A stretch of DNA of 32,000 nucleotides from Panacagrimonas sp. (GCA_052389915.1 JBQTHL010000056.1:15481-47480); one strand, 5' to 3'. Shown: positions 14,091 through 28,424, counted from the stretch's first letter. The notes: generated by a model from the sequence alone, not told the origin. Numbers and translations are program-made.

Positions 14091-15548
14091 CTATGCGAAC
14101 CAGCGCAAGGTCATCGCGATGAGGCGCTTCACGCGTTCGGTGTAGGGTGGATAGAACATCCGAACCAGCCCGATGCGGGTATCGGCGACGGCGCGAGCGT
14201 GTGAGAACGTGCGGAAGCCGAACTCGCCATGCGTGCTGCCAAGGCCTGAATGGTTGACGCCACCGAACGGCAGCAGTGGGTGCAGGGCCTGCACGACGGT
14301 GTTGTTGACGCAGGCGCCACCCGAGGAGGTGCGGTCCAGCACGCGGCGGATGCGTGCACGGTCCTTGCCCCAGATGTACAGCGCGAGCGGCTTTTCGCCG
14401 CCGTTGATACTGTCGATGACCTCGTCGAGTTCGCCAAACCGGATCACCGGCAGCAGCGGCCCGAAGATCTCTTCCCGGAGGATGGCGGCGTCGTCCGGCA
14501 CTCGTTCCAGGATCGTTGGTGAGACGTAGCAGTGCTCTTCCCGCACGTCACCACCGACGGCGACGGTTGCGCCACGCTGACGCGCATCGTCCAGCAGTCG
14601 CCGCACGCGGGAGGTGTGGCGGGCGTTGACGATGCGCGCGAGATCGGGCGACAGGAAACGCGCCTCGTCATCCTTGCCGAAGACTTCCGCCAGCCGCTGG
14701 CGCAGCAGGTCCAGGAACTCGTCGGCGACCGAGGCGTGTACAAACAGGTGATCGGGCGCGATGCAGGTCTGCCCGTTGTTCATGAACTTGGACCAGCACA
14801 CGTTGTGCGCGGCCGCCTTGAGGTCGGCGCTGGCGTCGATGATGGTCGGGCTCTTGCCGCCCAACTCCAGGGTGACGCTGGTGAGATGGTGCGAAGCGGC
14901 AGCCATCACCACCTTGCCCAGAGCGGGTGCCCCGGTGAAAAAAATGTGGTCGAAGGGAAGGTCGAGCAGGGTCTTGGCGAGTTCTGCGTCGCCCTGGAAC
15001 AGCGCGACTTCTTCTGCAGGAAACGTCGCGTCGATGATTGTCTGCATCTGCGCCGACAGATGTGGCGTCATCTCTGAAGGTTTTACGATGGCGGTGTTGC
15101 CGGCGGCGAGCGCCAGCACCAGCGGGCAGAAGCTGAGATTCACCGGGTAATTCCACGGCGAAACGATCAGGCAGCGGCCGCGCGGCTGGTATTCGATGCG
15201 TCCCTGAGTGCCGGCCATCAGCGGCGAGAACCCGACGCGAGTCGGCTTCATCCAGCGCTTGAGTCTGCGCATGGCCATGTTCGCTTCGGATACGACGGTG
15301 AAGATTTCCGTCAGGTCCACTTCGACTTCCGGCTTGCGGAAGTCGGCCGCCGCCGCGGCGCGAATGGCGGGTGCTGCCGCCAGAACCGCGTCGCGCAGTC
15401 TGCGGATACGTTCGATCCGCTCCACGGCGGTGGATGTGCGCCAGCGCAGAGCGGTGGGCCGCTGCGCCTCGAAAGTGGCTAACACCCGTTCTGCCAGCGG
15501 GTCCTGGACCGGCGTGCTGGGCACCGGAATCTTCGAGGGAGCGTTCAC
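14091..15548 (-). CDS. NAD(P)-dependent aldehyde dehydrogenase, class-3/coniferyl-aldehyde-DH-like (fatty/aromatic aldehyde type)
   Basis: 485 aa. Contains SPWNYPVNLSF, IVKPSE, the catalytic Glu block LELGGKSP and the catalytic Cys block NNGQTCIAPDHLFVH. GTG start at 15548 has GGAG 8-11 nt upstream. It is divergent from the CuMMO operon. Confidence 0.93.
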   Translation of the reverse strand: MNAPSKIPVPSTPVQDPLAERVLATFEAQRPTALRWRTSTAVERIERIRRLRDAVLAAAPAIRAAAAADFRKPEVEVDLTEIFTVVSEANMAMRRLKRWMKPTRVGFSPLMAGTQGRIEYQPRGRCLIVSPWNYPVNLSFCPLVLALAAGNTAIVKPSEMTPHLSAQMQTIIDATFPAEEVALFQGDAELAKTLLDLPFDHIFFTGAPALGKVVMAAASHHLTSVTLELGGKSPTIIDASADLKAAAHNVCWSKFMNNGQTCIAPDHLFVHASVADEFLDLLRQRLAEVFGKDDEARFLSPDLARIVNARHTSRVRRLLDDARQRGATVAVGGDVREEHCYVSPTILERVPDDAAILREEIFGPLLPVIRFGELDEVIDSINGGEKPLALYIWGKDRARIRRVLDRTSSGGACVNNTVVQALHPLLPFGGVNHSGLGSTHGEFGFRTFSHARAVADTRIGLVRMFYPPYTERVKRLIAMTLRWFA

Positions 15549-15775
15549 GTACGAGTCTCCATGTGAGGAGGAAGCGATTGCGGACCACTAAGGTTCATAT
15601 AAGGCTCATAGGGTTCATTCGCCCACAATAAATCAGTCAAGCGTTTGTTAGATAGTGCGGTAACGACGTTCTGCACATCGGCGCGATCAGGACGACAAAT
15701 AATATAGTGAATGTACGTACTGCGCACTACTAAATAGGCGGGTCCGATCGAAATCCAGGACGATAGCAATGTGCG

Positions 15776-15793
15776 TAGCAGAGCTATCTGCTA
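15776..15793. promoter_or_regulatory. 7-4-7 inverted repeat TAGCAGA-GCTA-TCTGCTA abutting the putative -35 of the CuMMO operon
   Basis: Read directly, with perfect arms. It ends 1 nt before TTGACT (15794-15799). Its left arm overlaps by 2 nt the shared 12-mer GCAATGTGCGTA (15766-15777). Confidence 0.3.
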
Positions 15794-15823
15794 TTGACTT
15801 TTCCATGCAAGCTCAATTATGGT
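15794..15823 (+). promoter_or_regulatory. Putative sigma70-type promoter of xmoCAB (TTGACT - 18 nt - TATGGT)
   Basis: The -35 TTGACT (15794-15799) matches consensus at 5/6. TATGGT (15818-15823) matches at 4/6. The spacer is 18 nt. This would give a 5-prime UTR of about 65-70 nt before ATG 15897. By-eye prediction only. Confidence 0.35.
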
Positions 15824-15896
15824 CTGATCGTCGCCAGCGCCCTAGCTGGTGAAGCGCGCAGAATCGGGTCGCCATCCAGGTCAGGAGGTTTACATC

Positions 15897-16691
15897 ATGA
15901 GTTCCGTCAGCCAAAGCACGACATACCAGTCCCCCACGGCTCCCTGGGCCAAGCTTTTCCTGATTCTGGTCGGAGTTGGAATGCTTTACACCGGCTACCG
16001 GCTGTATCAAAACGCTACCGCCTTCACTGTTGGGCTCGACTACTTTTCGCCGGAATTCCAGAGCACTTGGATGATGCTGCTGTATATCCAGTTGCCGGTG
16101 CTGGTCGCGATGGGCACGGGAATCGTCGGATGGATCTGGCACACGCGTGATCGCCAGTTGGACAAGCTCGCGCCGGTCGAGGAGCTGCGACGCTACTTCG
16201 TGCTGCTCGGGTACATCATGATCTTCGCGATCGTGGCCTATCTGACGGCGTCGCCGTTCACCGAGGCGGATGCGGCCTGGCATCAGGTGACGGTGCGCGA
16301 TACCGATTTCACGCCCACCCACATCACGCTGTTCTACTTCGGCATTCCCATGTTCATCATGAGCGGTGTGGCGGCGTTCGCCTACGCCCGTACACGGCTG
16401 CCACAGTTCGCGAACAAGCTGTCCCTGCCGTTTGCGCTGGTGGTTGCAGGGCCGATCATGATCATGCCCAACCTGGGGCTGAACGAATGGGGTCACACGT
16501 TCTTCTACGCCGAGGAACTGTTCGCCGCGCCGATTCACTGGGGCTTCGTGCTGCTCGGCTGGGCCACGTTTGCGGCCGGCGGACTGGTGGTGCAGATCCT
16601 CACCCGGGTCGTCGAACTGACCAAGGTGATCGGTGAGCCCGCGCCGAGGGTGGAATCGGCGAAGGCGATGGCAGTCACAGCAGCAGCCTGA
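15897..16691 (+). CDS. xmoC: Copper membrane monooxygenase subunit C (PmoC/AmoC family)
   Basis: ORF 15849..16691 trimmed to ATG 15897 (MSSVSQ...), with AGGAGG at 15883-15888. Contains EADAAWHQVTVRDTDFTPTHITLFY (D-x3-H-x12-H) and PNLGLNEWGHTFFYAEELFAAPIHWGF (N-x3-H-x13-H). These have the same spacing as the PmoC CuC and CuD ligand sets of M. capsulatus. Confidence 0.93.
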   Translation: MSSVSQSTTYQSPTAPWAKLFLILVGVGMLYTGYRLYQNATAFTVGLDYFSPEFQSTWMMLLYIQLPVLVAMGTGIVGWIWHTRDRQLDKLAPVEELRRYFVLLGYIMIFAIVAYLTASPFTEADAAWHQVTVRDTDFTPTHITLFYFGIPMFIMSGVAAFAYARTRLPQFANKLSLPFALVVAGPIMIMPNLGLNEWGHTFFYAEELFAAPIHWGFVLLGWATFAAGGLVVQILTRVVELTKVIGEPAPRVESAKAMAVTAAA

Positions 16692-16714
16692 TAACGATCC
16701 TTGGTCTTGCGTCA

Positions 16715-16742
16715 GGCGAGGGCGCCCCTCGGCGCCCTCGCC
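16715..16742 (+). other. Perfect 12-bp GC hairpin 24 nt after the xmoC stop (mRNA stability/processing or attenuation element; no U-tract)
   Basis: GGCGAGGGCGCC-CCTC-GGCGCCCTCGCC read directly. It lies in the 192-nt xmoC-xmoA spacer. Confidence 0.5.
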
Positions 16743-16883
16743 GGAGAGCGACGAGACTAACGCGACGCTTTACGACTTGACCGCTCGCGGGCGGTCAGAA
16801 CATTGCGTGAATAATTAGAAACGCGGAAATCAGGCTGTCCCGCTCGCGGGCTTTCTGCTTGACGCTTTGAGGCGGAGGCCCCC

Positions 16884-17657
16884 ATGAAAGCCGTAGATGA
16901 TCTCGACAGTTCTGCCTCGGGTGCTTACGGGCTCAGCTCGTCAAAAGAGCAGCACAAGGCCTACGTCCAGGCGGACCTGCTGGTCATCCCCCTGATCGTG
17001 CTGCTGTTCATGGGCATCTTCAGTTTTCACTTCGCCCTGCTCGTCGGCGACTGGGATTACTGGGTGGACTGGCGCGACCGCCGCTGGTGGCCGCTGGTGA
17101 CGCCGCTGGCGCTCTCAGTACTGCCGGGAGTGTTCGGGTTTCTGCTGTGGGACAAGCTTCGTTTGCCGCTGGGCGGGACGCTCACGATCCTGTGCCTGAC
17201 CCTCGCGGCCTGGATCAGCCGCTATCTCAATTTTTATCTGTTCGCGGATTTCCCGATGAACTTCGTGTGGCCCTCGACCTACATCGGGCTGGGTCTGATT
17301 CTGGACTGCATGCTGCTGCTCACTCGCAGCTTCTTCTGGACCGGGCTGTTCGGCGGGTTTGCCTTCGGTCTGCTGATCTACCCGCTCAACTGGTCGATGC
17401 TGGCGCCGTTCCAGGTGCCGTTGGAACTCAACGGCACCATGCTTACTGTGGCCGATCTCATGGGCTACGAGTACATCCGCACGGCGATTCCCGAATACGT
17501 CCGCATCATCGAGGAGTCAACGCTCAGAACCTTCGGGTCAGCGGTGACGCCGCTGACGGCAGTGTTCGCCGGATTCCTGAACATCATGAACTACTGGTTC
17601 TGGCTGTGGATCGGCTACCTGGGTGCCAAGGCACTCTGGATCCGGAAGATCGTCTGA
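16884..17657 (+). CDS. xmoA: Copper membrane monooxygenase subunit A (PmoA/AmoA family)
   Basis: 257 aa. GDWDYWVDWRDRRWWPLVTP, NFVWPST and YEYIRTAIPEYVRIIEESTLRTFG align by eye with PmoA blocks ([40 protein letters not shown]). GGAGG lies at 16874-16878. Confidence 0.95.
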   Translation: MKAVDDLDSSASGAYGLSSSKEQHKAYVQADLLVIPLIVLLFMGIFSFHFALLVGDWDYWVDWRDRRWWPLVTPLALSVLPGVFGFLLWDKLRLPLGGTLTILCLTLAAWISRYLNFYLFADFPMNFVWPSTYIGLGLILDCMLLLTRSFFWTGLFGGFAFGLLIYPLNWSMLAPFQVPLELNGTMLTVADLMGYEYIRTAIPEYVRIIEESTLRTFGSAVTPLTAVFAGFLNIMNYWFWLWIGYLGAKALWIRKIV

Positions 17658-17667
17658 GGGCGCGACC

Positions 17668-18906
17668 ATGAAACTCCTACGTGCTTTTCTGCTTCCGCTG
17701 CTCGCACTGTGCGCGGGCTACACCCCGACGTTGCTGGCGCACGGCGAACGCGCGCAGATGCCGCAGTTGCGCATGCGCACGGTTCACTGGATCGACGTGC
17801 AGGCCTCCGCTTCCAAGCTGGCCATCAACGACATCGTCAAGATCAGCGGCAAGTTCATGCCGTCGAAGTACTGGCCGCACCATGTGAACTCGATCGAGGA
17901 AACGGCCTTCCTCAACATCGGCGTGCCCGGCCCTGCGTTTGTGCGTCTGGACTCGCGCGTCAACGGCGTGCCGATGATCCGCTCCACTTCGTTTCGCAAG
18001 GGCGAGACCTACGATTTCGAGATCACGCTCAAGGCGCGCAAGGTGGGTCGTTATCACGTCCACACCGTCATCAATGTCGAAGGCGCCGGCCCCATGATCG
18101 GCCCCGGCATGTGGGTCGAAGTGGCGGGCGACGAAGCGGCCTTCCAGAACACCGCCAAGACCCTGCTTGGCGAAACCATCGATCTGGAAACCTACGGCCT
18201 GGGCAACGTCATGTTCTGGTCCGCGCTGTGGTTTGCGGTGGGCCTGTCCTGGTTCATTTACTGGCTGACCAAGTGCCCCATCGTCGTGCCCCGCTTCAAG
18301 CGCACCGCAGAACTGGGCGTCGAGGCCGATCAGATGATCACCCCGATGGACCGGCGCATCGGCGGCATCTTCCTGGTGCTGACCCTGAGCCTGATCGTCG
18401 GCGGCTATGTCTACGCCCAGGAAAAATGGCCCATCACCACCCCTCTCCAGACCGGCAAGATCGACGTTCCCCCGCTCGATCAGCCGCCGACCCCGATCTC
18501 CATCAAGCTCATCGAAGCCCGGTACCGTATTCCCGGCCGCAGCTTCAGGATGGAATTCGACGTCATCAACAACAGTGATCGCCAGGTGACCATCGGCGAA
18601 TTCGCCGCCGGCAACCTGCGCTTCATCAACGCCAAGGTGCTCGACGTCAAACCCAAGGACGAGCACGACCTGGTGGCTTCCGATGCCCTGCGCGTGGAAG
18701 GTGGGCCGGTTGCTGCGGGAGCCACTCAGCGCGTCGTGATCTACGCCGACGACGCCATGTGGGAAACCGAGCGCATGACCACCATGATTTCCTCGCCCGA
18801 TGCGGTCGTGGCCGGCGTGCTGTTCTTCTTCGAGGAAGGCGGCAAGCGGCACTTGGTGGAATTTGGCGGCCCCATGATTCCCGACTTCGGTATGAGCAAG
18901 AGCTGA
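17668..18906 (+). CDS. xmoB: Copper membrane monooxygenase subunit B (PmoB/AmoB family), secreted precursor
   Basis: ORF 17623..18906 trimmed to ATG 17668. The signal peptide MKLLRAFLLPLLALCAGYTPTLLA is followed by HGERAQMPQLRMRTVHWID. YHVHTVINVEGAGPMIGPG aligns along its length by eye with M. capsulatus PmoB (HGEKSQAAFMRMRTIHWYD; WHVHTMMNVQGGGPIIGPG). It has two central TM helices and a C-terminal cupredoxin-like half. Confidence 0.95.
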   Translation: MKLLRAFLLPLLALCAGYTPTLLAHGERAQMPQLRMRTVHWIDVQASASKLAINDIVKISGKFMPSKYWPHHVNSIEETAFLNIGVPGPAFVRLDSRVNGVPMIRSTSFRKGETYDFEITLKARKVGRYHVHTVINVEGAGPMIGPGMWVEVAGDEAAFQNTAKTLLGETIDLETYGLGNVMFWSALWFAVGLSWFIYWLTKCPIVVPRFKRTAELGVEADQMITPMDRRIGGIFLVLTLSLIVGGYVYAQEKWPITTPLQTGKIDVPPLDQPPTPISIKLIEARYRIPGRSFRMEFDVINNSDRQVTIGEFAAGNLRFINAKVLDVKPKDEHDLVASDALRVEGGPVAAGATQRVVIYADDAMWETERMTTMISSPDAVVAGVLFFFEEGGKRHLVEFGGPMIPDFGMSKS

Positions 18907-19523
18907 TGATGCGTCGTCTCGCCCGCGTCCTGGTGTTCGGGTCCGCCGTGCTCGCAACCGCGCCTGCAGGCGCGCACGGCGGCGTGTCCATGGAAGACGA
19001 CAATTGCATCATGAAGATCGGTGCGATGACCGCGCATTTCACCGGCTACCAGCCGGAAAAGCGCGCGACGCAGGAGTTCTGCGAAGACATCCCGGAACTC
19101 GGGCGCGCCATCATTGTCATTGACTACGTCAGCGCCGCGCTGCGTCAGTATGAAGTCGAGTTCCGCGTGCTCAGAGATACTAAGGATCTAAAGTCGCGGG
19201 GACGCTACGAAGACCTCGGAACGCCGGCGGACATCGCAGCAGCCACCCTGATCCACGTGCCGCCGCAGGTGTATCCGCGAGGCACGCTGACCTTCGATCA
19301 GGGCTTCGATGCGCCGGGCTGGTACATCGGGATGATCACCGCCAAGGATCCAGCCACCGGCACGTTGTTGCACTCGGTGTTCCCGTTCAAGGTCGGCGTG
19401 CACAGCCTGTGGCGCTACGCCCCCGCCTTCATGATCGTTTTCGCGCTCGCAGGACTGGCTTATCGACTCACCGGTCGCAAGACAGCTACAGCTAAAGCTA
19501 AAGCTAAAGCAAAAGCAACATGA
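18906..19523 (+). CDS. PmoD/AmoD-like membrane-anchored periplasmic protein (putative copper protein; family assignment tentative)
   Basis: ORF 18759..19523 trimmed to ATG 18906, which overlaps the xmoB stop (TGATG). The signal peptide MMRRLARVLVFGSAVLATAPAGA is followed by HGGVSMEDDNCIMKIGAM. After that comes a soluble domain of about 150 aa, one C-terminal TM helix (YAPAFMIVFALAGLAYRL) and a basic tail. This architecture and its position directly after subunit B match PmoD. Confidence 0.65.
   Translation: MMRRLARVLVFGSAVLATAPAGAHGGVSMEDDNCIMKIGAMTAHFTGYQPEKRATQEFCEDIPELGRAIIVIDYVSAALRQYEVEFRVLRDTKDLKSRGRYEDLGTPADIAAATLIHVPPQVYPRGTLTFDQGFDAPGWYIGMITAKDPATGTLLHSVFPFKVGVHSLWRYAPAFMIVFALAGLAYRLTGRKTATAKAKAKAKAT
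19485..19520 (+). repeat. Hexanucleotide tandem repeat: GCTACA (GCTAAA)x3 GCAAAA GCAACA
   Basis: Read directly. It encodes the tail ATAKAKAKAKAT of the PmoD-like protein and runs into the copC ATG (19520). Its codon choice is AT-rich and atypical for this high-GC window. Confidence 0.85.
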
Positions 19524-19900
19524 GGACGCAGTCACCCCGCATGGCTTTTTGGCTACTCATCGCATGCTCGCTCGGCGCTTACGGATCTGCTGTGTTCGCG
19601 CATGCAGGGCTGGTCAGTTCGGAACCCGGCCGGCGTGCAGTGCTGGCCGCGGCTCCGAAAGAAATTAGATTGTGTTTCAACGAAAACGTCGAAGCGAAGT
19701 TTTCCAAGGTCAGCTTGTACAACGCCGATGGCACCGAGATTCCGCTCGGTGAGCTGAAGGCCGACCCGCAAAAGCCCGCCTGTCTGACTGCGTCGGTCGA
19801 TTCGCTGCCCGGCGGAAGCTACACGATCAAGTATCGTGTTCTGTCGGTCGATGGCCATGTCGTGGATTACGGCTACGGGTTCAAATTAAGCCTGCCCTGA
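19520..19900 (+). CDS. copC: CopC-domain periplasmic copper-binding protein
   Basis: 126 aa. The signal peptide ends ...SAVFA and is followed by HAGLVSSEPG (N-terminal His, as in the HxxLxxSxP CopC start). The C-terminal YRVLSVDGHVVDYGYGF carries the D/H ligand block. ATGA overlap with the upstream gene. Confidence 0.9.
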   Translation: MRTQSPRMAFWLLIACSLGAYGSAVFAHAGLVSSEPGRRAVLAAAPKEIRLCFNENVEAKFSKVSLYNADGTEIPLGELKADPQKPACLTASVDSLPGGSYTIKYRVLSVDGHVVDYGYGFKLSLP

Positions 19901-19907
19901 GGCCGGG

Positions 19908-21869
19908 GTGATCGAATTCCTGTCCGCGGCCTCTCGACTCATCGCGACGGCCGGCGCAGCGTGGATCATCGGTTCGACCTGCTTCAGCCTATGGTGCGCC
20001 CGGATGGATCCGCAGCGTGCAGCCCTGCGCGCGGCGCTGCCCCTGCTGATCGCCGTCGGTCTGGTGGTTCTGGGCCATGCCGGCCTGATGTGGACCCAGG
20101 CGCTCTCGCTCGCCCCCCTCGGCTCCGGTTCGACCGATTGGGAAAGCCTGATCAACGGCACCCATGTCGGGCGAGTGTGGCGGATACGCGCCAGCGTCGC
20201 CGTCCTGCTGCTGTTGTCGGCGCTCGTGGCGACGACATGGGGGCGGGCGCGATGGGCTTGCGCCTCGATGGCGGCGACGTATCTCGCGCTCGGACCCTGG
20301 GGTGGACACGCAGCCGGCGCGGAATCGGCTTGGCAGGTGATGCTGCCCAATGTCATCCATGTTCTCGCCATCTCGGTCTGGGTCGGCGCCCTGCCGTCCT
20401 GGTTCGTGGCGGTGCGACGTTTTGCTCGCGCCGATCCGTCCGCGCTGCCCACGCCGGTTCTTGCGGCCGCCCTGGAGCGATTCTCTCGGTTGGCGATGGT
20501 GTTGATGATCGTCATCGTCGTCACGGGCGTCTGGCTGGCGGATCTCTACATCGACACGCAGGGGGACCTGCTGGGGACGCGCTACGGCGCGCTGATTCTC
20601 GGAAAGCTCGGCTTGCTGGCACTTGCGCTGCTGTTCGCCAACCGGTTGCGAACACGGTTTCTTCCCATGCTGAGATCGGCCGGCGAGGCGACTGGTCAGC
20701 GTCGCCTTGCCGCCTCGGCCTTGCGTCATTTCTGCCCTGAACTGGCCGCGGCTTCCGGCGTCCTGATCTGTGCAGCCTGGCTGGCGCAGACCACCCCAGC
20801 ACTGCACGAGCCCGCGCCGAAGTGGTGGCTGCCGTTCCGCTGGTCATTAGACGCAACCTGGCCGGATTCGTCGCTGCGGGTGTGGTTTCTGGCAGCCTTC
20901 GCAGCCTTGATCCTCGCGGGAGCCGCGGCAACCGGCTCGCGACGTAAAACGCTGCGCATTCCCTCAATGCTGTTGGCGGTAGCCGCGACCAGCGTGTTGG
21001 CCTGGGCGTTCGCCGTCCCGGCTTATCCGAATACCTATCGGCGCTCCCAGGTGCCGTATCTGACGCTGTCCGTGGCCGGCGGGCGCGCGCTGTTCGCCGA
21101 GCACTGCACGGCCTGCCACGGCGCGGGAGGACTCGGAGACGGACCGTTGGCAGCGAAGCTGCCGAAGCCGCCGGCAAATCTGAGCGAGCCGCACACGGCG
21201 CTGCATACGGCTGGCGACATGCACTGGTGGCTCACACACGGTATTCCCGAAAGCGGAATGCCCGCCCTGGGTGCTGTGCTCTCCGAGGACGACCGCTGGG
21301 ACCTGATCAACTTCATGCGCGCCTTCTCGCAAGGTTTCGAAAGCCGGGTGCTGCGCGCCCGCGTGGTTCCCGGCCTGGCCTGGCTTGGGGCGATCAATTT
21401 CTACATCGAGGGCGTGCCGGGACCGGGGGAACTCAAGGGCTATCGCGATACACACAATGTCTTGCTGACCTTTCTCGGCGGACCACATGCCGAAGCTCGC
21501 GCGCGAACGCTCGCCGCTGCGATGCCTGAGTTCCAGTCGCGCCGCACGCAGATTCTCGCGGTGCCGTTGGGCGATGTTCGCCTGCCTGCCGACTTGCCTT
21601 ATCCCGTGCTGAGCACCGCCGCTGCCGAGCTCTGGTCCGCCTACGAGTTGCTCGCGCGCACGGTCGGCGACCGCGGCCTGCCGGACCGGCTGGGCATGGA
21701 TTGGACGGATGCGGAATTCCTCATCGATCGTTTCGGCTACGTGCGTGCGCGCTGGATTGCGCAGGACGACCCGGAGGGGTGGACCGACCCCGTCAGGCTG
21801 TACCCGGAACTGGATCGGCTCAATGCCGAACCGCGCTTGCGTCCGCCCCCGGACGATCACATTCACTGA
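19908..21869 (+). CDS. copD: CopD-family membrane protein fused to a c-type cytochrome domain and a C-terminal thioredoxin-fold-like domain lacking CxxC
   Basis: 653 aa with a GTG start 7 nt after the copC stop. The N-terminal ~300 aa are polytopic (CopD-like), followed by two more TM helices. The haem motif is FAEHCTACHGAGGLGDGP (Cys400/Cys403/His404, nt 21105-21119), with GIPESGMPA as the likely axial Met. The C-terminal ~170 aa contains NVLLTFLGG...ILAVPLG...AEFLIDRFGYVRARWI, which resembles the peroxiredoxin/TlpA fold but has no Cys pair. Confidence 0.85.
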   Translation: MIEFLSAASRLIATAGAAWIIGSTCFSLWCARMDPQRAALRAALPLLIAVGLVVLGHAGLMWTQALSLAPLGSGSTDWESLINGTHVGRVWRIRASVAVLLLLSALVATTWGRARWACASMAATYLALGPWGGHAAGAESAWQVMLPNVIHVLAISVWVGALPSWFVAVRRFARADPSALPTPVLAAALERFSRLAMVLMIVIVVTGVWLADLYIDTQGDLLGTRYGALILGKLGLLALALLFANRLRTRFLPMLRSAGEATGQRRLAASALRHFCPELAAASGVLICAAWLAQTTPALHEPAPKWWLPFRWSLDATWPDSSLRVWFLAAFAALILAGAAATGSRRKTLRIPSMLLAVAATSVLAWAFAVPAYPNTYRRSQVPYLTLSVAGGRALFAEHCTACHGAGGLGDGPLAAKLPKPPANLSEPHTALHTAGDMHWWLTHGIPESGMPALGAVLSEDDRWDLINFMRAFSQGFESRVLRARVVPGLAWLGAINFYIEGVPGPGELKGYRDTHNVLLTFLGGPHAEARARTLAAAMPEFQSRRTQILAVPLGDVRLPADLPYPVLSTAAAELWSAYELLARTVGDRGLPDRLGMDWTDAEFLIDRFGYVRARWIAQDDPEGWTDPVRLYPELDRLNAEPRLRPPPDDHIH

Positions 21870-21887
21870 AACACTCAGGAGACAACC

Positions 21888-22388
21888 ATGCAACGATCCC
21901 CCGCTCTTTTTATTCTCGCGCTGCTCGCCAGCAGCGTATCGCTTGGCGCGCGGGCAGGCGGCGACGCGGCGCACGATCACCATCAGCATCACCAAGGGCA
22001 CGGACAACACCCGGCCGATGGCGCGGCGGGCAAGGGTGCCACCGAGGTTCCACCGCTGCGCATCCTGTTTCCCGAGTCCGGCGCCAAGGTCGGGACGCAG
22101 CTTGCCGTGGTGTTCGAAACGCCCGGCGAAATGGCACGGCTGACCATGAGCGCGCCGGTGGTGGGTACTCATCTGCATATCGAAACCGACGGTATTTCCC
22201 TGATGCCGAGTGAGAACCAGCTCATCCGGCTCGGTGGAAACCGTTACGTGTTCGTGTTCGACCTGCCGGTCAGCGCGGGCGAGCGCAGCCTGCGGGTGTA
22301 TTGGTCGGATGGCATGCACCGGACCATCGATTCGAGCATGCAGACGGTCAAGGTGATCGTCGAGGGCGCGATCAGTCCTGGAAAGTGA
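21888..22388 (+). CDS. Secreted His-rich protein, DUF4399-like (putative periplasmic metal binding)
   Basis: 166 aa with AGGAG RBS. The signal peptide MQRSPALFILALLASSVSLGARA is followed by the His cluster HDHHQHHQGHGQH (nt 21972-22010). The blocks VGTHLHIETDG and GERSLRVYWSDGMH resemble the DUF4399 GHHHL..D / GEH.L.L...D..H pattern as I remember it. Confidence 0.6.
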   Translation: MQRSPALFILALLASSVSLGARAGGDAAHDHHQHHQGHGQHPADGAAGKGATEVPPLRILFPESGAKVGTQLAVVFETPGEMARLTMSAPVVGTHLHIETDGISLMPSENQLIRLGGNRYVFVFDLPVSAGERSLRVYWSDGMHRTIDSSMQTVKVIVEGAISPGK

Positions 22389-22611
22389 AGTAGGAAGGGA
22401 ACGGCGGCAGGAGAATCCTGTCGCGCGCCTGCGCGTCCGACGCTTCGCAGGTCGACGCTGATCGCTTGCGCACGGCGTCCACCGCCCGAGCGCGTCCACG
22501 AGGCAGGCACCCGCTGGTCGGGGCGCTTCGCCCGCCGGTCCGAACTGGCATCAATCCAATCTATTCCCGGTATGATGTTGTTCTAACAAACATTTGGTAT
22601 GGAGAGTAAGG

Positions 22612-25110
22612 ATGTTTTGGAGTAGGTCTGCATGTCGCTGGTCAATCATTCCTGCGTTGCTGCTCGCAGGGCCGGCCGCGAACGCCGTCGAGTACGACTT
22701 CTCGGCAGGAGGCTTTGATTTTTCGTCAGTGTTGAACAATACCCTCACGCTTGGCGCTGCGTGGAGAATCGAGGGTCGATCAAATGATCTGGTCGGCAAG
22801 TCCAACCTCGATCCCGGGGTTTGTTCCGGTCCCTACCAGTCCTGCCAGGGCCTGCACCGCCTGCAGAACTTTCCCGCCCAACGGCTGGCGTCTGCGCCGG
22901 GTATGGCCTCCATCAACTTCGACGACGGCAATCTCAACTACAACAAGGGCGACATCATCCAGGCGCCGCTCAAGCTCTCGCAAGACCTTACCGTCAGCTT
23001 CGGAGACTACGGCATCTTTGTTCGAGGACTTGGCATTTTCGACCAGGCGAACTACTTCGACTTCCGCAATTTCTACCCCAACCAGATCACCGCCGAGAAC
23101 GTTGGCAGCGTGGGTATTGTCGGCAGCCCGACGTCCAACCGGTACCTGCCGCGGGTGTACGGTCCTGGGGCTCCGGTTCGCAGTGACCGGGCGGAAGACG
23201 AGGCGCAAGAAATCGGGCTCAGATACGACCTGCTCGATGCCAATTTCTACGGGAGTCTGCCTTTTGTCGGCGAACGCGAACTGACCTTTCGGCTCGGCCG
23301 GCAGACAGTGAATTGGGGCCAGAGCACGGTCGCGGTCGTCAACAGCGTCAACCAGGCGCAGCCGGTGAACGCGAACAGCCTTTACCGGCTCGGTTTCGGT
23401 CTGCTGGAGGAGCTCTTCGTCCCGGTGGGCATGGCGCGCTTCAGCACAGAACTGGTGAACGACGTCGGCGTCGAGATCTACTACCAGTACGAATGGGACC
23501 CGGTCGAGATTCCGACGCCTGGCAGCTACATGTCCTTCGTCGACATCGGTACCGACAATCTGCGCGGTACGGTCAACGCGGCGTTCGGTGGCGCGGCGGA
23601 CGACCCCGATCACGTCGGTGCGCCGCTGGACAACCCGCTCACCCTGATCACGCCAACCACCTTGACCCTGGATCGGCGCGGCGACAACGAGGCCCGCGAC
23701 CAGGGCCAGTACGGCATCGGCCTGAAGTATTACGCCGAGGAACTCAATAACGGCACCGAGTTCGCGGCTTACTTCATGAACTACCATTCGAAGCTGCCGT
23801 ACGTGAGTTTCTATTCCACCGATCCCAGTTGCGCCCGTCGCGAGGGCAGTTCCCGGGGCATCGACGCCACGAACACTCTCGAATTCCTGGCCGGGTGTCC
23901 AAACCTACCGGTCACCGCGCCGTCGGCGTCATCGCAACTGGCTCTCGATCTGGTCACTCTGGCGGCACAGAGGCCGGGCGCGCTCGCTGATCTGGGCGCC
24001 GGGACATTGGACCTGGGAGCCATTCTGGGCGGCGTGGGCGGACTATTGCTGCCGCAGCCTGGTCAGCAAATCAGTGACGCCGTGCCGCTGGACACGGCCC
24101 AGATCCAGCTCGAATACCCCGAAGACCTGAAGATGTTCGGGTTCAGCTTCACCACCACCGCTGGCGAGCTGTCCCTGCAGGGCGAGCTGTCCTACCGACC
24201 GAAACTTCCGCTGCAGGTTGCCCTGATCGATCTGGCCTTTGCCTCCTTCGGTCCCACTCTGACCCGCTGCCACGACCGGAACCTGGGTTGCCTGGGCGCC
24301 TCTGCGGGACTCGGGTTCAACGAGGCGGGGAGCTACGTGGTCTACGACGGCAACAACTTCACCGACGCCAGCGGCAACAACCCCTACCCTGATGCAATCA
24401 ATCTGGTCGTGGGCGCGGCGCCGGGTTCGGCGCGTTCCTTTCCCAACTTCATCGTGCCCTACCGCGGCGGTGTGGTAGGCGAGAATCCGCCGAACAGCTA
24501 CATCCGCGGCTGGATTCCTGGAAAGGTGGCGCAGTACAACTTCGGAGCGACGCAGGTGCTCGGCCCGAACGAGAACTGGATTGCTGCGGACCAGGTGATC
24601 CTGCTCTACGAACTGGCGGCAACCCATGTGCTCAACATGCCGGATTTCGACAAGCTGCAGATCGAAGGCCCGCTGACGGCGACCACGCACGCCAGCGCCG
24701 GCGCCGATGGCAGTGGTGCGGATGGATCGCGCCTAGCCTGTTCGACCAATCCCTCGTGCTCGGTGGGTCCGGACGGACTGCGCTTCAACCCTTACCAGGC
24801 ACCGCGTAGTGCATTCGCCGATGCATTTTCCTGGGGCTATCGCATCGTTGGGCGCATCGCCTACGAGTCGGTGTTCCCTTCGATCAGCATCCAGCCGTTG
24901 TTCATCTGGTCACAGGACATCGGTGGCAACTCGCCGGGACCGGCCGGCAATTTCGTGGAAGGCCGCAAGACCCTGAACTTCCTGCTGGAAACGCGCTACG
25001 GGAAGTCCTACTCGTTCACTATCGCCTACAACAGTTTCTTCGGCGGCGGTAAGGACAACCTTTACGAGGATCGCGACAACCTCGGCTTTTATGTCAAGTA
25101 CCAGTTCTGA
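22612..25110 (+). CDS. DUF1302-family outer-membrane beta-barrel protein
   Basis: ORF 22594..25110 trimmed to ATG 22612, with GGAGAG at 22601-22606. The signal peptide ends ...LLLAGPAANA. LTLGAAWRIEGRSNDLVG and INFDDGNLNYNKGDIIQAPLKLSQDL are typical DUF1302 N-terminal blocks. The C-terminus ...LGFYVKYQF ends in an aromatic residue, as OMP signatures do. Confidence 0.8.
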   Translation: MFWSRSACRWSIIPALLLAGPAANAVEYDFSAGGFDFSSVLNNTLTLGAAWRIEGRSNDLVGKSNLDPGVCSGPYQSCQGLHRLQNFPAQRLASAPGMASINFDDGNLNYNKGDIIQAPLKLSQDLTVSFGDYGIFVRGLGIFDQANYFDFRNFYPNQITAENVGSVGIVGSPTSNRYLPRVYGPGAPVRSDRAEDEAQEIGLRYDLLDANFYGSLPFVGERELTFRLGRQTVNWGQSTVAVVNSVNQAQPVNANSLYRLGFGLLEELFVPVGMARFSTELVNDVGVEIYYQYEWDPVEIPTPGSYMSFVDIGTDNLRGTVNAAFGGAADDPDHVGAPLDNPLTLITPTTLTLDRRGDNEARDQGQYGIGLKYYAEELNNGTEFAAYFMNYHSKLPYVSFYSTDPSCARREGSSRGIDATNTLEFLAGCPNLPVTAPSASSQLALDLVTLAAQRPGALADLGAGTLDLGAILGGVGGLLLPQPGQQISDAVPLDTAQIQLEYPEDLKMFGFSFTTTAGELSLQGELSYRPKLPLQVALIDLAFASFGPTLTRCHDRNLGCLGASAGLGFNEAGSYVVYDGNNFTDASGNNPYPDAINLVVGAAPGSARSFPNFIVPYRGGVVGENPPNSYIRGWIPGKVAQYNFGATQVLGPNENWIAADQVILLYELAATHVLNMPDFDKLQIEGPLTATTHASAGADGSGADGSRLACSTNPSCSVGPDGLRFNPYQAPRSAFADAFSWGYRIVGRIAYESVFPSISIQPLFIWSQDIGGNSPGPAGNFVEGRKTLNFLLETRYGKSYSFTIAYNSFFGGGKDNLYEDRDNLGFYVKYQF

Positions 25111-25123
25111 GGTGCGGACGCGG

Positions 25124-25144
25124 GCAGTGGTCAGTTTCCACTGC
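25124..25144 (+). terminator. Weak hairpin after the DUF1302 gene (GCAGTGG-TCAGTTT-CCACTGC)
   Basis: A 7-bp stem 14 nt after the stop. There is no U-tract, so terminator function is uncertain. Confidence 0.25.
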
Positions 25145-25160
25145 GCGGAAGCGCGAGCGA

Positions 25161-25190
25161 TGGAAAGGCAAATCGCAATGTGCGTATACT
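25161..25190 (+). promoter_or_regulatory. Putative promoter of the TonB2-type operon (TGGAAA - 18 nt - TATACT), overlapped by the shared 12-mer and an inverted repeat
   Basis: The hexamers were read by eye (4/6 and 5/6 to consensus). GCAATGTGCGTA (25175-25186) overlaps the spacer and the -10. AATGTGC (25177-25183) and GCACATT (25197-25203) form a 7-bp inverted repeat with a 13-nt spacer. Confidence 0.3.
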
Positions 25191-25309
25191 CACTCTGCAC
25201 ATTTAAAAGAGACTTCGAGCCGGCCTGAGAGGGATCCGTGCATTGAAGTTTCGATCAGTGCGGTGGCTTGCCACCGCGCGTTTGTCGGCGGGGAGGAGTC
25301 CCCTGGAAC

Positions 25310-26092
25310 ATGATCGTATTCCCAAAGTGGAAGGCTGTCGCCGCGCGGATGCTCGGCCTGTCGCTGGCGGTTGCCGTGCCCTGCGCGCCGGCTCAGGACG
25401 CTGCCGGCAAGGCGCTGGACGCGGTGGTCGATGGCAACCGCGCCGCGAGAACGTCCCAGCAGAGGGTCGATAGCCTCGACGATCAGACCAAGTCCATGCT
25501 CGAGCGCTATCGCGCCGCGAGCTGGCAGGCGCAGCAACTCACGGTCTATGCCAAGCAGCTCGGCGAACTGGTGTCCGCGCAGGAGGGCGAACGCAGCTCG
25601 ATCGAGCGTCAGATCACCGAGATGGAGCGCACCGAGCGCGAGCTGCTGCCGCTGATGCTGCGCATGGTCGAGGGGCTGGAGAAATTCATCGCGCTGGACC
25701 TGCCGTTTCTGGCGACCGAGCGCCGCGAGCGGCTGGACACGCTGAAGAAGCTCATGTCCGATCCTGAGGCGAACAACGCCGAGAAGTTCAAGCGCCTTCT
25801 GGAAGCCTGGCAGATCGAATCGGAGTACGGACGTTCGATCGGCACCGAGCGCGCCGAGGTCGAGGGCCGCACCGTCGATGTGCTGCGTCTGGGGCGCACG
25901 GCGCTGTACTACCTGTCGGCCGATGGCAAGCAGGCGGGAACCTGGAACAGCAGCAGCGGCGCCTGGGAGGCACTCCCGCATCAGCACGTCGCTCAGGTGC
26001 GGCATGGCCTGCGCATGGCGCGGGAAACGGCCGCGCCGGATCTGCTGAGGTTGCCTGTCGCTGCCGCCGCTGCGGCCGGAGCCGCGCCATGA
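25310..26092 (+). CDS. DUF3450-family periplasmic coiled-coil protein (TtpB-like TonB2-system component)
   Basis: ORF 25268..26092 trimmed to ATG 25310, with GGGAGGAG at 25291-25298. It has a signal peptide and a long coiled coil. The blocks ELLPLMLRMVEGLEKFIALDLPFL and EKFKRLLEAWQIESEYGRSIG are typical of DUF3450. ATGA overlap with the next gene. Confidence 0.8.
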   Translation: MIVFPKWKAVAARMLGLSLAVAVPCAPAQDAAGKALDAVVDGNRAARTSQQRVDSLDDQTKSMLERYRAASWQAQQLTVYAKQLGELVSAQEGERSSIERQITEMERTERELLPLMLRMVEGLEKFIALDLPFLATERRERLDTLKKLMSDPEANNAEKFKRLLEAWQIESEYGRSIGTERAEVEGRTVDVLRLGRTALYYLSADGKQAGTWNSSSGAWEALPHQHVAQVRHGLRMARETAAPDLLRLPVAAAAAAGAAP

Positions 26093-27477
26093 GGCGTGAC
26101 TGCGCATTCTGGCGCGGGCTCATCGCGGCGGCGTTGATGCTCGGCACCGGCACCGGCGCCTTGCACGCGCAGGCGCCTTCGCCCTCGCAGAAAGGCATGG
26201 ACGAACTGCTCAAGCAGATCCGCCAGGGGACGCAGGAGGCCGCCAAGCTCAACGCAGAACGCGAGCAGCGTTTCCTGCGCAACAAGAACGAGCAGGCCGC
26301 TTTGCTGGCCAAGGCCGAGGCGGATCGCGCTGCCGCCGGCGCGCGGGCCGATCAGGCAAAAGCGCAATTCGCGGCCGGCCAGGCCCAGATCGCCGAACTC
26401 AAGAAGCGCCTGACCGAGCGCCTGGGCGACAGCGGGCAGATGTATGCGGCGATCGCGCAGTCCGCCGGCGAGTTCCGCAGCCAGATCGCCGGCTCGCTGG
26501 TTTCGGCGCAATACCCGGATCGCGCCGAGTTTCTGGATCGCATCGCACAGGCGGGCGAGGTGCCGGGCGTGGCCGACCTGGAGCAGCTCTGGTTCCTGTA
26601 CGCACAAGAGGCCGCCGAGAGCGGGCGGGTGGTGCGCTTTCAGGCCGAGGTGCTCGATGCCTTGGGAGAAAAATCGAAGACCGAGGTGATCCGGGTGGGC
26701 CAGTTCACGGCGCTGACCGAAGAGGGCTATTTGACCCTGCAAGCCGGGACCGCAGCGCTCGCACTGCTGCCGCGCCAGCCCGACGGCAATTCGGGACTCG
26801 TCGAGGATTTCAGCGCGGCGGGCGAGGGCTTGCACACGGTGCTGATCGACCCCTCGCGCGGCGACCTGCTGCGCAAGATCGCCGAGCGGCCCACCACGAT
26901 GGAGCGCATCCATCAGGGTGGCGAGGTGGGCTACGTCATCATCGCCATCGGTGTGATCGGCGCGGTGCTCGCGGCCTACCAGTTCGGGTACCTGCTGCTG
27001 GTGGGTGTGAGGGTGCAGCGGCAGTTGCGGGACGTGGCGCAGCCGCGCGAGGACAATCCGCTGGGTCGCGTGCTCGCCAGCCTGAAGATCGACGCCACGC
27101 AGGATCCGGAAGTGCTGGAGACGCGCCTGTCCGAGGCGGTGCTGCGCGAGACGCCCAAGCTGGAGCGATTCCAGTCGCTGCTGCGCATGATCGTCGCTGC
27201 GGGTCCGCTGCTGGGCCTGCTCGGCACGGTGATCGGCATGATCATCACCTTCCAGGTCATCACCGAGGTCGGTGCGGGCGATCCCAAGCTGATGGCCGGT
27301 GGCATCTCGCAGGCCATGATCGCGACGGTGCTCGGCCTGATCATCGCTATCCCCTTGCTGTTCGTGAACAGCTTCCTGATGACCCGTTCGCGCAGCATCA
27401 CGCAGGTTCTCGACGAGCAGGCCGCCGGGCTGCTGGCGCAGCGCCTGGAAGCGGCAGGCGGGCGCCAGCATGCTTGA
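26089..27477 (+). CDS. Long MotA/TolQ/ExbB-family proton-channel protein with large N-terminal periplasmic coiled-coil domain (TtpC-like)
   Basis: 462 aa. The C-terminal channel block is AAGPLLGLLGTVIGMIITFQ...GGISQAMIATVLGLIIAIPLLF. The N-terminal ~270 aa are extra-membranous and coiled-coil-rich. Confidence 0.85.
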   Translation: MRRDCAFWRGLIAAALMLGTGTGALHAQAPSPSQKGMDELLKQIRQGTQEAAKLNAEREQRFLRNKNEQAALLAKAEADRAAAGARADQAKAQFAAGQAQIAELKKRLTERLGDSGQMYAAIAQSAGEFRSQIAGSLVSAQYPDRAEFLDRIAQAGEVPGVADLEQLWFLYAQEAAESGRVVRFQAEVLDALGEKSKTEVIRVGQFTALTEEGYLTLQAGTAALALLPRQPDGNSGLVEDFSAAGEGLHTVLIDPSRGDLLRKIAERPTTMERIHQGGEVGYVIIAIGVIGAVLAAYQFGYLLLVGVRVQRQLRDVAQPREDNPLGRVLASLKIDATQDPEVLETRLSEAVLRETPKLERFQSLLRMIVAAGPLLGLLGTVIGMIITFQVITEVGAGDPKLMAGGISQAMIATVLGLIIAIPLLFVNSFLMTRSRSITQVLDEQAAGLLAQRLEAAGGRQHA

Positions 27478-28009
27478 GCTGATCGTCCAGTCGTTCACGG
27501 AGCAGTACGACACGCTCGGCGAGTTCCTCGATGCGGGCGGCTGGGTGACGCGCTGGATCCTCGCGGCCTGTGCCGTCCTGCTCACCGTCGTGTTCGAGCG
27601 CCTCTGGTATCTGTGGCGCATCTATCCGCGCGTGCGTGCCGCGACCCTAGCCGGGTGGAACGCGCGCAGCGAGCGCCACTCCTGGGTCGCGCACCGCATC
27701 CGCACGGCGCTGATCAGCCAGTTGCGCATGGGCCTGGAATCCGGCCTGCCCATCATCAAAGTGATGGTGCCGATGGCGCCGCTGCTCGGCCTGCTCGGCA
27801 CCGTGATGGGCATGCTGCAGGTGTTCGACGCGATGGCCTTCAGCAAGGGCGGCGACACGCGCGCGATGGCCGACGGCATCTCGCACGCGATGATCGCGAC
27901 CATGGCCGGGCTGGTGGTGAGCGTGATTGGGCTGTTCTTCAGCAACCTGTTCGCCTCGCGGGTGCGGGTTGAGTCGGAACGGCTGAATGATTTGATTGCG
28001 CCGGGCTGA
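27470..28009 (+). CDS. exbB: MotA/TolQ/ExbB proton-channel protein
   Basis: 179 aa. Contains MAPLLGLLGTVMGMLQVF...DGISHAMIATMAGLVVSVIGLFF. It overlaps the upstream gene by 8 nt. Confidence 0.9.
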   Translation: MLELIVQSFTEQYDTLGEFLDAGGWVTRWILAACAVLLTVVFERLWYLWRIYPRVRAATLAGWNARSERHSWVAHRIRTALISQLRMGLESGLPIIKVMVPMAPLLGLLGTVMGMLQVFDAMAFSKGGDTRAMADGISHAMIATMAGLVVSVIGLFFSNLFASRVRVESERLNDLIAPG

Positions 28010-28016
28010 TGCGCAC

Positions 28017-28421
28017 ATGAAATTCCGCCGCCACAACCCGCCTCCCGAAGACACCGGCATCGACCTCGCGCCGATGCTCGACTTCGTGATGAACCTTCTG
28101 ATCTTCTTCATCATCGCTGCGGCCTTCGTGCAGGAGTCCGGCATCCGCGTGAACAAGCCGGCCGCGAAGACCGCGCAGCAGGAGGACAAGACCAGCATCT
28201 TCGTCGCCATCTCGGCGACCAATGAGATCTGGATCAATCGCGAGCGCGTCGACATCCGCCGCCTGCGCACCGAAATCGAACGCGTGCGCCGCGACAAGCC
28301 CAAGGCCGTGGTCGTGATCCAGGCCGACCAGGACGCGCGTGCGGGGCTGATGGTGGAAGCGATGGATCAGGCGCGGCTGGCCGGCGTGCCGGACGTGTCG
28401 ATCGCGGCGACACCGAAATAG
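28017..28421 (+). CDS. exbD: ExbD/TolR biopolymer transport protein
   Basis: ORF 27996..28421 trimmed to ATG 28017. Contains IDLAPMLDFVMNLLIFFII (TM helix with the conserved Asp), then ...VVIQADQDARAGLMVEAMDQARLAG. Confidence 0.9.
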   Translation: MKFRRHNPPPEDTGIDLAPMLDFVMNLLIFFIIAAAFVQESGIRVNKPAAKTAQQEDKTSIFVAISATNEIWINRERVDIRRLRTEIERVRRDKPKAVVVIQADQDARAGLMVEAMDQARLAGVPDVSIAATPK

Positions 28422-28424
28422 CGC

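Follow-up and report, generated by a model that had tools for sequence, protein, structure and literature searches.

In alphaproteobacterial methanotrophs, the genes for particulate methane monooxygenase (pMMO), a copper membrane monooxygenase (CuMMO), belong to extended operons of the form pmoCAB-pmoD-copC-copD-pCuAC (PMC6189053). A PmoD is defined as a protein of 150-250 aa with a signal peptide, two cysteines and a C-terminal transmembrane (TM) helix (PMC6189053). According to Fisher et al., PmoDs with a Cx9HxnC motif often adjoin copC, and one that was tested binds copper without a CuA site. In the AZY system of E. coli, copper import involves CopC, CopD and one more small protein (PMC8689200), and the Ycn system of B. 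subtilis is described in like terms. A 2026 review of ammonia monooxygenase (AMO) leaves CopC and CopD unmentioned, and a 2026 paper on copper in nitrifiers treats CopCD as plain uptake proteins.

We analyzed a 32,000-nt stretch of Panacagrimonas sp. DNA (GCA_052389915.1 JBQTHL010000056.1:15481-47480), hereafter the window, in which seven co-directional open reading frames (ORFs) occupy positions 15897-22388 of the + strand. They are xmoC, xmoA and xmoB, a PmoD-like gene, copC, a copD fusion and a gene for a small His-rich protein (gene 7), and conserved homologues exist for all seven. The locus is of a known kind, the CuMMO operons extended by pmoD/amoD and copCD; what differs here is the DUF4399-related His-rich seventh gene, a PmoD of the Cx9H class, the heterotrophic host, and the fusion of all junctions after xmoA. 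We think it fairly likely that this is an extended CuMMO operon whose four downstream genes encode a copper supply line that faces the periplasm and are expressed together with the enzyme. An earlier interpretation of the locus, made from the sequence alone (the sequence-only reading), had cited the extended methanotroph operons correctly (PMC6189053). Its gene identities, this operon precedent and its DUF4399 link have held up; its views of a distinguishing redox CopD, of strict dedication to the monooxygenase and of stoichiometric expression have not. The seven genes are as follows.

15897..16691, + strand: xmoC, CuMMO subunit C, 264 aa (AGGAGG before the ATG at 15897; Pfam AmoC, 4e-83)
16884..17657, + strand: xmoA, CuMMO subunit A, 257 aa (Pfam AMO, 4e-79)
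17668..18906, + strand: xmoB, CuMMO subunit B, 412 aa (Pfam Monooxygenase_B, 2e-121)
18906..19523, + strand: PmoD/AmoD-family gene, 205 aa (phmmer against PDB 6CPD, E 4.6e-14)
19520..19900, + strand: copC, periplasmic protein, 126 aa (Pfam CopC, 3.5e-21)
19908..21869, + strand: copD fusion, 653 aa (Pfam CopD, 7e-17; Cytochrom_C, 1e-12)
21888..22388, + strand: gene 7, 166 aa (alignment of 32 homologues, AlphaFold2 (AF2) model, profile comparison)

The first six genes stand in the same order as in the pmo operons of Methylosinus trichosporium OB3b and Methylocystis sp. Rockwell (PMC6189053), and a seventh, small periplasmic protein closes both clusters. That protein is PCuAC in the methanotroph operon whereas in the window it is a DUF4399-related Ig-like protein; the PmoD is of the CuA-forming Cx7MxHxnC class in the former and of the Cx9HxnC class in the latter; and the window's host, unlike Methylosinus and Methylocystis, is a non-methanotroph. 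The amo clusters of nitrifiers encode the same three-part CopD (a CxxCH cytochrome c, a cysteine-less thioredoxin-like domain and a C-terminal HxH), with 33-38% identity in alignments that span residues 78-653 or 1-653. They also have copC immediately upstream of copD, PmoD-family genes between the B subunit gene and copC and, in the betaproteobacterial ammonia oxidizers (beta-AOB), a stem-loop 3' of the C-subunit gene. Nitrifiers differ in having two or three PmoD paralogues, against one in the window, and in lacking gene 7 (0 of 38 loci). The yobA-yebZ-yebY (AZY) genes of E. coli (PMC8689200) and ycnKJI of B. subtilis resemble the window in combining CopC and CopD, encoded separately or fused, with a third small extracytoplasmic partner whose gene adjoins copD. 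The third partners, YebY (DUF2511) in E. coli and YcnI (DUF1775) in B. subtilis, are of families unrelated to gene 7; the two systems include neither a CuMMO nor a PmoD, and no cytochrome c or thioredoxin-like extension of their CopD proteins is described in the literature searched.

The monooxygenase genes and the junctions of the operon

The C-A-B gene order, with AmoC, AMO and Monooxygenase_B matches far above the Pfam gathering scores, identifies xmoCAB as a CuMMO. These matches (4e-79 to 2e-121), and those to CopC, CopD and Cytochrom_C, confirm the identities that had been assigned to xmoCAB, CopC and CopD-cytochrome c from the sequence. XmoC aligns with PmoC structures in the PDB (5e-71) and conserves DTDFTPTH and NEWGHTF...PIHWGF, which hold the Asp/His/His and Asn/His/His ligands. 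XmoB aligns with the PmoB of PDB pMMO structures (6e-108), CuB histidines included; it carries a signal peptide and an HVH motif, and its mature chain is predicted to start with His (LLA/HGERAQ). All three subunits align with solved pMMO and AMO subunits and keep the copper ligands. The NCBIfam AmoA and AmoC equivalog scores of the window proteins lie below the cut-offs, and the Solimonas-type CuMMO has been listed as of unknown function (PMC6215863, PMC8630023). The substrate of XmoCAB is probably a hydrocarbon, because the operon lies between beta-oxidation/aldehyde dehydrogenase genes and an outer-membrane DUF1302/DUF1329-TonB cluster; the flanking beta-oxidation genes suggest hydrocarbon oxidation that feeds beta-oxidation. 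By sequence look-up, XmoA is identical to a protein of the metagenome-assembled genome (MAG) GCA_965233095.1, where the gene order is the same. In one other MAG (L018, 3001-4790), xmoC is present in two tandem copies before xmoAB and the accessory genes.

The genes are joined as follows (all on the + strand), and the spacer between xmoC and xmoA holds a stem-loop.

16691 / 16884: xmoC/xmoA junction, 192-nt gap
16715..16742: stem-loop with a perfect 12-bp G+C stem, 24 nt past the xmoC stop (-29.9 kcal/mol)
17657 / 17668 (xmoB ATG): xmoA/xmoB junction, 10-nt gap
18904-18908: xmoB/PmoD-like junction, TGATG, with the xmoB TGA at 18904-18906 and the next ATG at 18906, 1-nt overlap
19520-19523: PmoD-like/copC junction, ATGA serving as stop and start, 4-nt overlap
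19900 / 19908: copC/copD junction, stop at 19900 and GTG start at 19908, 7-nt gap
21869 / 21888: copD/gene 7 junction, stop at 21869 and ATG at 21888, 18-nt gap with AGGAG inside

For the junctions after xmoB, every coordinate and spacing given by the sequence-only reading matches the sequence. The packing is not peculiar to the window: over the 31 loci that share its gene order, median gaps come to 165 nt (C-A), 10 nt (A-B), -1 nt (B-D), -4 nt (D-copC), 7 nt (copC-copD) and 25 nt (copD-gene 7), and the two overlaps, of 1 and 4 nt, recur in the canonical-order loci. The arrangement, with gaps conserved across these 31 loci, exceeds chance. A consensus scan of the sequence found no promoter-like and no terminator-like site at the junctions after xmoB; its four terminator-like sites (4.8 expected) all lie elsewhere. 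Since the junctions after xmoA overlap or are very short and the gene order is conserved, co-transcription of all seven genes is likely.

The spacer between xmoC and xmoA stands apart. It had been claimed that no hairpin or promoter-like island precedes 22388; this is right for the junctions after xmoB, but not for the spacer, in which the 12-bp stem lies. The 192-nt spacer folds better than 200 of 200 shuffled sequences (z = -3.8), and a stem-loop of unrelated sequence is found 5-60 nt after the C-subunit stop in most related loci, beta-AOB included (it was also noted in L003, L004, L006, L010, L012, L015, L016, L023, L054, L069, L072, L077 and L087; that of L010 is followed by a T-run and resembles an intrinsic terminator). 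This hairpin may attenuate or segment the message; it probably causes partial termination or stabilizes the mRNA, which would leave xmoC and the downstream genes at unequal levels. Moreover, in Bradyrhizobium and S. aquatica, gaps of 120-230 nt occur 3' of xmoB or 3' of the D gene. Stoichiometric co-expression of enzyme and metallochaperones, which had been proposed from the tight junctions, does not follow from them, and the conserved xmoC hairpin and variable spacers argue against it. Because the Bradyrhizobium and S. aquatica gaps differ in this way, the cluster acts like a set of three modules (xmoCAB; the D gene; copC-copD with or without gene 7) that in the present lineage are joined as one tightly packed unit.

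The four accessory proteins

Residues of the metal-ligand type are conserved in all four accessory proteins. The fourth gene had been called PmoD-like, and its match to 6CPD, the crystal structure of PmoD from Methylocystis sp. Rockwell, bears this out (E 4.6e-14, residues 33-162). Its signal peptide leads into a cupredoxin-like domain in the periplasm, after which come a C-terminal TM helix and a tail of Ala-Lys repeats; the signal peptide and helix were read off the sequence without a dedicated predictor. The protein falls within the published definition of a PmoD. No Pfam or NCBIfam model matches it, and an exact-sequence look-up returned no match. An alignment of 23 homologues has a hydrophobic N-terminus and a C-terminal hydrophobic helix throughout, with H24, C34, H44 and C59 invariant, which gives the motif Cx9HxnC; in the window protein, the Met called for by the CuA set is shifted by one residue (Cx6Mx2H), and the homologues do not conserve it. 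Because the family motif is C-x9-H and the Met is misplaced and unconserved, the protein is assigned by its sequence to the Cx9HxnC class and not to the CuA-forming Cx7MxH class. All aligned homologues keep HGGV (codons 18975-18986, H24-G-G-V) where the signal peptide is predicted to be cut, so that the mature protein (predicted start HGGVS) would begin with His, as mature XmoB and CopC would. This N-terminal His is a possible amino-terminal copper site. The window differs in length from a 99%-identical MAG (L001) only by two in-frame 6-nt indels, of which one, at 19482-19487, falls in the (GCTAAA)n run for the Ala-Lys tail and looks like slippage.

CopC scores 76.4 bits against its Pfam model (cut-off 23.3) and 75.8 against the NCBIfam equivalog, below the cut-off of 95. 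It aligns with PDB 6NFQ (7e-16) and 5ICU (8e-14) at the N-terminal His and the DxH positions, and the solved CopCs so aligned include that of M. trichosporium OB3b. With a predicted mature N-terminal His (VFA/HAGL), a D-G-H motif (SVDGH) and no Met-rich Cu(I) site, the product of gene 5 is predicted to be a Cu(II)-type CopC.

In the product of gene 6, a CopD core of eight TM helices and two additional TM helices are followed by a mono-haem cytochrome c on the periplasmic side and by a thioredoxin-like domain (AF2 pLDDT 85). Its CopD domain scores 62.2 bits in Pfam (cut-off 32.1) and its cytochrome 49.3 bits (Cytochrom_C, cut-off 21.3); the NCBIfam CopD equivalog score, 101, falls below the cut-off of 195, which is consistent with a divergent fusion form. 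In an alignment of 31 sequences, C400xxCH404 (C400, C403, H404), M451, PHTALHTxGDM and H651-x-H653 are invariant, and CxxCH is present in 90 of 90 loci. This CxxCH and the distal Met predict haem attachment to the cytochrome c domain. Foldseek placed the C-terminal domain with ResA, TlpA-like thioredoxins and Bcp/peroxiredoxins (target-normalized TM-score 0.6-0.73). The domain is cysteine-less in the window protein and in most homologues, which rules out an active thiol-disulfide or Sco-like center in it; since it has no CxxC and no peroxidatic Cys, it is predicted to be a thioredoxin-like fold without redox chemistry. The chain ends (21846-21869) in PPPDDHIH-COOH, and the pattern PPPx[DE]H[VIL]H-COOH recurs in 85 of 89 complete homologues, the other four having M-x-H. 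The terminal HxH extends from the Nevskiales to Nitrosomonas and comammox Nitrospira and is a candidate copper-binding tail; we found no description of it in the literature searched. The sequence-only reading had regarded the redox domains of CopD as a mark of this locus. The same fusion is the copD of the amo clusters of beta-AOB (Nitrosomonas, Nitrosospira) and comammox Nitrospira, and because the cytochrome and thioredoxin-like parts are covered in all loci, it is the ordinary CuMMO-linked CopD, nitrifiers included. This family-wide three-part architecture is not discussed in the literature searched, and may already be known to specialists.

The protein encoded by gene 7 has a signal-peptide-like N-terminus, a His-rich tract (HDHHQHHQGHGQH) that is disordered in the AF2 model, and an Ig/FnIII-like beta-sandwich core with pLDDT > 90. 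H95-x-H97, M106, D141 and H144 are invariant among 32 homologues, and these residues make copper binding plausible for this protein too. The window protein has no Pfam hit even at E 10 and matches no NCBIfam family; a Foldseek search of the PDB returned generic Ig/FnIII matches and no copper chaperone, and a sequence search against solved structures gave noise, mostly His-tags. Its relationship to DUF4399 (PF14347) emerges from the family. Of the 32 relatives, eight have sub-threshold DUF4399 matches whose register agrees (best 20.5 bits, cut-off 28). By hmmsearch, the family profile picks up a true DUF4399 protein with six copies of the domain (5e-31), and when hhalign compares the two families (92% probability, E 5e-7), both motifs, HxH and D-G-x-H, line up, as does the register of the beta-sandwich. 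By these profile comparisons, gene 7 is placed as a remote DUF4399 homologue below the Pfam gathering score. Thus the label DUF4399-like stands as a statement of remote homology (5e-31, hhalign 92%), but not as a Pfam match of the window protein itself. PCuAC (DUF461) was rejected by homology, since neither gene 7 nor its 32 aligned relatives match it in Pfam or NCBIfam. No function of DUF4399 is described in the literature searched, where the mentions listed are passing ones outside title and abstract. At E <= 1e-3 the gene 7 family numbers 163 representatives out of 1.84 billion, which makes it a small one. The second of the two indels relative to L001, a CATCAC missing from the window at 21987/21988, lies in the (CATCAC)n His tract and looks like slippage, so the length of the tract varies even between very close relatives.

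The gene set in other genomes and the case for copper supply

A survey of what follows xmoB had been set beforehand as a check on the operon. We scanned genomes with an alignment of the CopD fusion, which yielded 195 relatives, kept the best 80, and compared all seven window proteins with every locus by tblastn. The seven-gene order recurs in 24 of the 80 loci, in Nevskiales genera, Aquabacterium, several Bradyrhizobium species and gammaproteobacterial MAGs, and thus in gamma-, beta- and alphaproteobacteria, at protein identities down to 35-50%; after the MAG with the identical XmoA, the closest loci are those of Nevskia, Panacagrimonas, Polycyclovorans and Solimonas, which suggests a gammaproteobacterium of the Nevskiales type as the host. 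The remaining loci were arranged as follows.

copD and gene 7 only, on truncated contigs, consistent with the canonical order: 2 of 80
copC-copD-gene7-xmoCAB-D: 4 of 80 (L024, L027, L028, L034)
two blocks, divergently oriented: 4 of 80 (L032, L035, L039, L045)
gene 7 before copC: 3 of 80 (Methylibium, Rhodoferax, Acidovorax)
copC-copD-gene7 with no CuMMO within 8-9 kb: 1 of 80 (L031), plus L008 from the protein look-up
no gene 7, Panacagrimonas-type: 4 of 80, plus L009
nitrifiers, no gene 7: 38 of 80 (beta-AOB, amoCAB-E-D-copC-copD; comammox Nitrospira, three D paralogues-copC-copD)

Wherever xmoB is present, the PmoD-like gene lies directly 3' of it, and copC, copD and gene 7 remain mutually adjacent even where their block has shifted relative to xmoCAB. 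Because the trio is found without a nearby CuMMO, rearranged, or lacking gene 7, copC-copD-gene7 is a portable cassette and is not strictly dedicated; the CuMMO-free trio in Bradyrhizobium, the permuted and divergent loci, and the Panacagrimonas loci without gene 7 make the earlier phrase "dedicated to the monooxygenase" too strong. In L008 (7633-10489) and L031, from Bradyrhizobium diazoefficiens / manausense, the neighbors of the trio are a molybdenum hydroxylase cluster and a pyrroloquinoline quinone (PQQ)-dependent dehydrogenase, the latter together with the cytochrome c that belongs to it.

In the proposed copper supply line, CopC would take up Cu(II) at its His1/Asp/His site and present it to CopD. 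CopD would act as an inner-membrane transporter whose fused haem c provides the electron that turns Cu(II) into Cu(I) at the surface of the membrane, and its cysteine-less thioredoxin-like domain and C-terminal HxH might serve in docking or copper hand-off. The gene 7 protein would be a soluble His/Met copper shuttle, carrier or buffer, like PCuAC in methanotrophs, YebY in E. coli (PMC8689200) and YcnI in B. subtilis in role, not in ancestry. The membrane-anchored PmoD-family protein would be the partner closest to the CuMMO, for copper loading or stabilization, with delivery to the enzyme as the presumed end of the route.

Several points weigh against this scheme. The field is divided on whether copper flows through CopD for import or for delivery, and the haem domain of CopD could transfer electrons instead of reducing copper. 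The CuA ligand set Cx7MxHxnC (Cys41, Met49 and His51 of Met49242_1452) is lacking from the PmoD-like protein. The cassette is not exclusive to CuMMO loci, as the two Bradyrhizobium loci L008 and L031 have no CuMMO within 8-9 kb; copC-copD stands alone in some Nitrosomonas loci; and gene 7 is dispensable, being absent from the Panacagrimonas-type loci and all nitrifier loci.

One could instead propose an electron-delivery module, in which the CopD cytochrome c and the PmoD-like protein mainly feed the CuMMO with reducing equivalents drawn from the respiratory chain and copper transport is secondary. CuMMO-linked CopD invariably has a haem c domain fused to it, in lineages ranging from the Nevskiales to Nitrosomonas and comammox Nitrospira; PmoDs have the cupredoxin fold, and in one of their classes a CuA center of the electron-transfer type is formed (PMC6189053); and a review notes that PmoD has been proposed as an electron-transfer partner (PMC13058606). 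However, the same fusion occurs with CopC and gene 7 but no nearby CuMMO in L008 and L031, the PmoD-like protein of the window falls in the Cx9H class, of which the member tested has no CuA site, and the conserved CopD core and the copper ligands of CopC point to copper handling. We therefore regard electron delivery as the main task of these genes as unlikely.

The portability of the cassette bears on a second alternative, a general copper homeostasis or uptake cassette that happens to lie beside xmoCAB, serves all cuproenzymes of the cell, oxidases among them, and is transcribed as several units. It would account for copC-copD-gene7 being found CuMMO-free within 8-9 kb, upstream of xmoCAB, in divergent orientation, or with gene 7 before copC, for the 120-230-nt spacers between blocks in the Bradyrhizobium and S. 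aquatica versions, and for CopC and CopD being common outside CuMMO organisms (PMC6189053). Yet the xmoB/D and D/copC overlaps (1 and 4 nt), in the window and in most Nevskiales loci, leave no room for a promoter; nearly all loci with enough flank among the best 80 carry CuMMO or PmoD-family genes nearby; and no CopA/CopB-type resistance genes were found among the scanned proteins. Such a cassette is improbable here. That the gene 7 protein and CopC sequester excess copper, protecting the periplasm and the CuMMO, fits the variable length of the His-rich tail and the first description of CopC and CopD in resistance operons (PMC8689200), but is highly improbable, as no multicopper oxidase, CopB or efflux gene appeared among the ORFs scanned (part of those in the window), CopC and CopD expressed alone cause copper hypersensitivity, i.e. 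import (PMC8689200), and the gene set tracks a copper-requiring enzyme. Copper supply to the CuMMO thus remains the reading we prefer.

Flanking regions and wider meaning

Two further features bound the operon.

15794..15823, + strand: candidate sigma-70-type promoter, TTGACT-18-TATGGT, a weak candidate matched to the consensus alone (1 found, 1.6 expected)
22389..22593, + strand: 205-nt spacer 3' of gene 7, with G+C-rich stems and then an A+T-richer stretch before the DUF1302 gene

The candidate promoter sits upstream of xmoC in a 348-nt spacer of lower G+C. An imperfect 20-nt inverted repeat (15763-15806) overlaps the -35 hexamer of this sole promoter-like site before xmoC and is a possible operator. 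The 3' spacer (22389-22593) holds no canonical terminator, and its fold is not significant (z -1.25). No known RNA family of Rfam was found in 15400-22700, and the xmoC-xmoA spacer has no convincing ORF resembling the 23-residue pMMO-associated helix, a small TM peptide that was sought there.

Upstream, on the other strand, are genes for an aldehyde dehydrogenase, a thiolase, MaoC-type hydratases, a short-chain dehydrogenase/reductase (SDR), four acyl-CoA dehydrogenases and a TetR regulator. Downstream (22594-31788) follow DUF1302, DUF3450, two ExbB-like genes, ExbD, TonB and a TPR-DUF1329 fusion; this DUF1302/ExbB/TonB cluster could serve the uptake of a hydrophobic substrate or of copper across the outer membrane. 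The cluster, from DUF1302 to TPR-DUF1329, also follows gene 7 in L001, L006/L007 and L019, and not in other lineages. In Solimonas sp. SE-A11 (L002/L003, 2874-3632), the cluster is flanked by transposase genes, and a divergent gene for a MerR-family regulator immediately precedes xmoC, where the window has an aldehyde dehydrogenase; this suggests that the cluster has moved between contexts.

The PmoD-CopC-CopD set reaches beyond methanotrophs and nitrifiers and accompanies the CuMMOs of many heterotrophic proteobacteria. To this the survey adds that the CopD linked to CuMMOs has a three-domain architecture with a haem c domain and a conserved HxH at its end, and that a small DUF4399-like protein travels with CopD in lineages other than nitrifiers; neither point was found discussed in the literature searched. 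Hosts among the culturable heterotrophs, such as Solimonas, Aquabacterium, Bradyrhizobium and Panacagrimonas, should be genetically easier to handle than nitrifiers, so the roles of the accessory proteins should be more directly testable in them. Most of the activity of pMMO is lost on purification, and AMO has never been isolated in active form (PMC6189053). A more speculative idea, which we hold to be doubtful, is that the HxH-tailed CopD fusion and the PmoD-family protein, joined in hydrocarbon-type clusters by the DUF4399-like protein, form a redox-driven metallation or electron-feeding machine specific to bacterial CuMMOs. If so, this machine would be common to nitrifiers, comammox Nitrospira and hydrocarbon oxidizers, and could be the missing accessory component that explains the loss of activity of purified pMMO and AMO.

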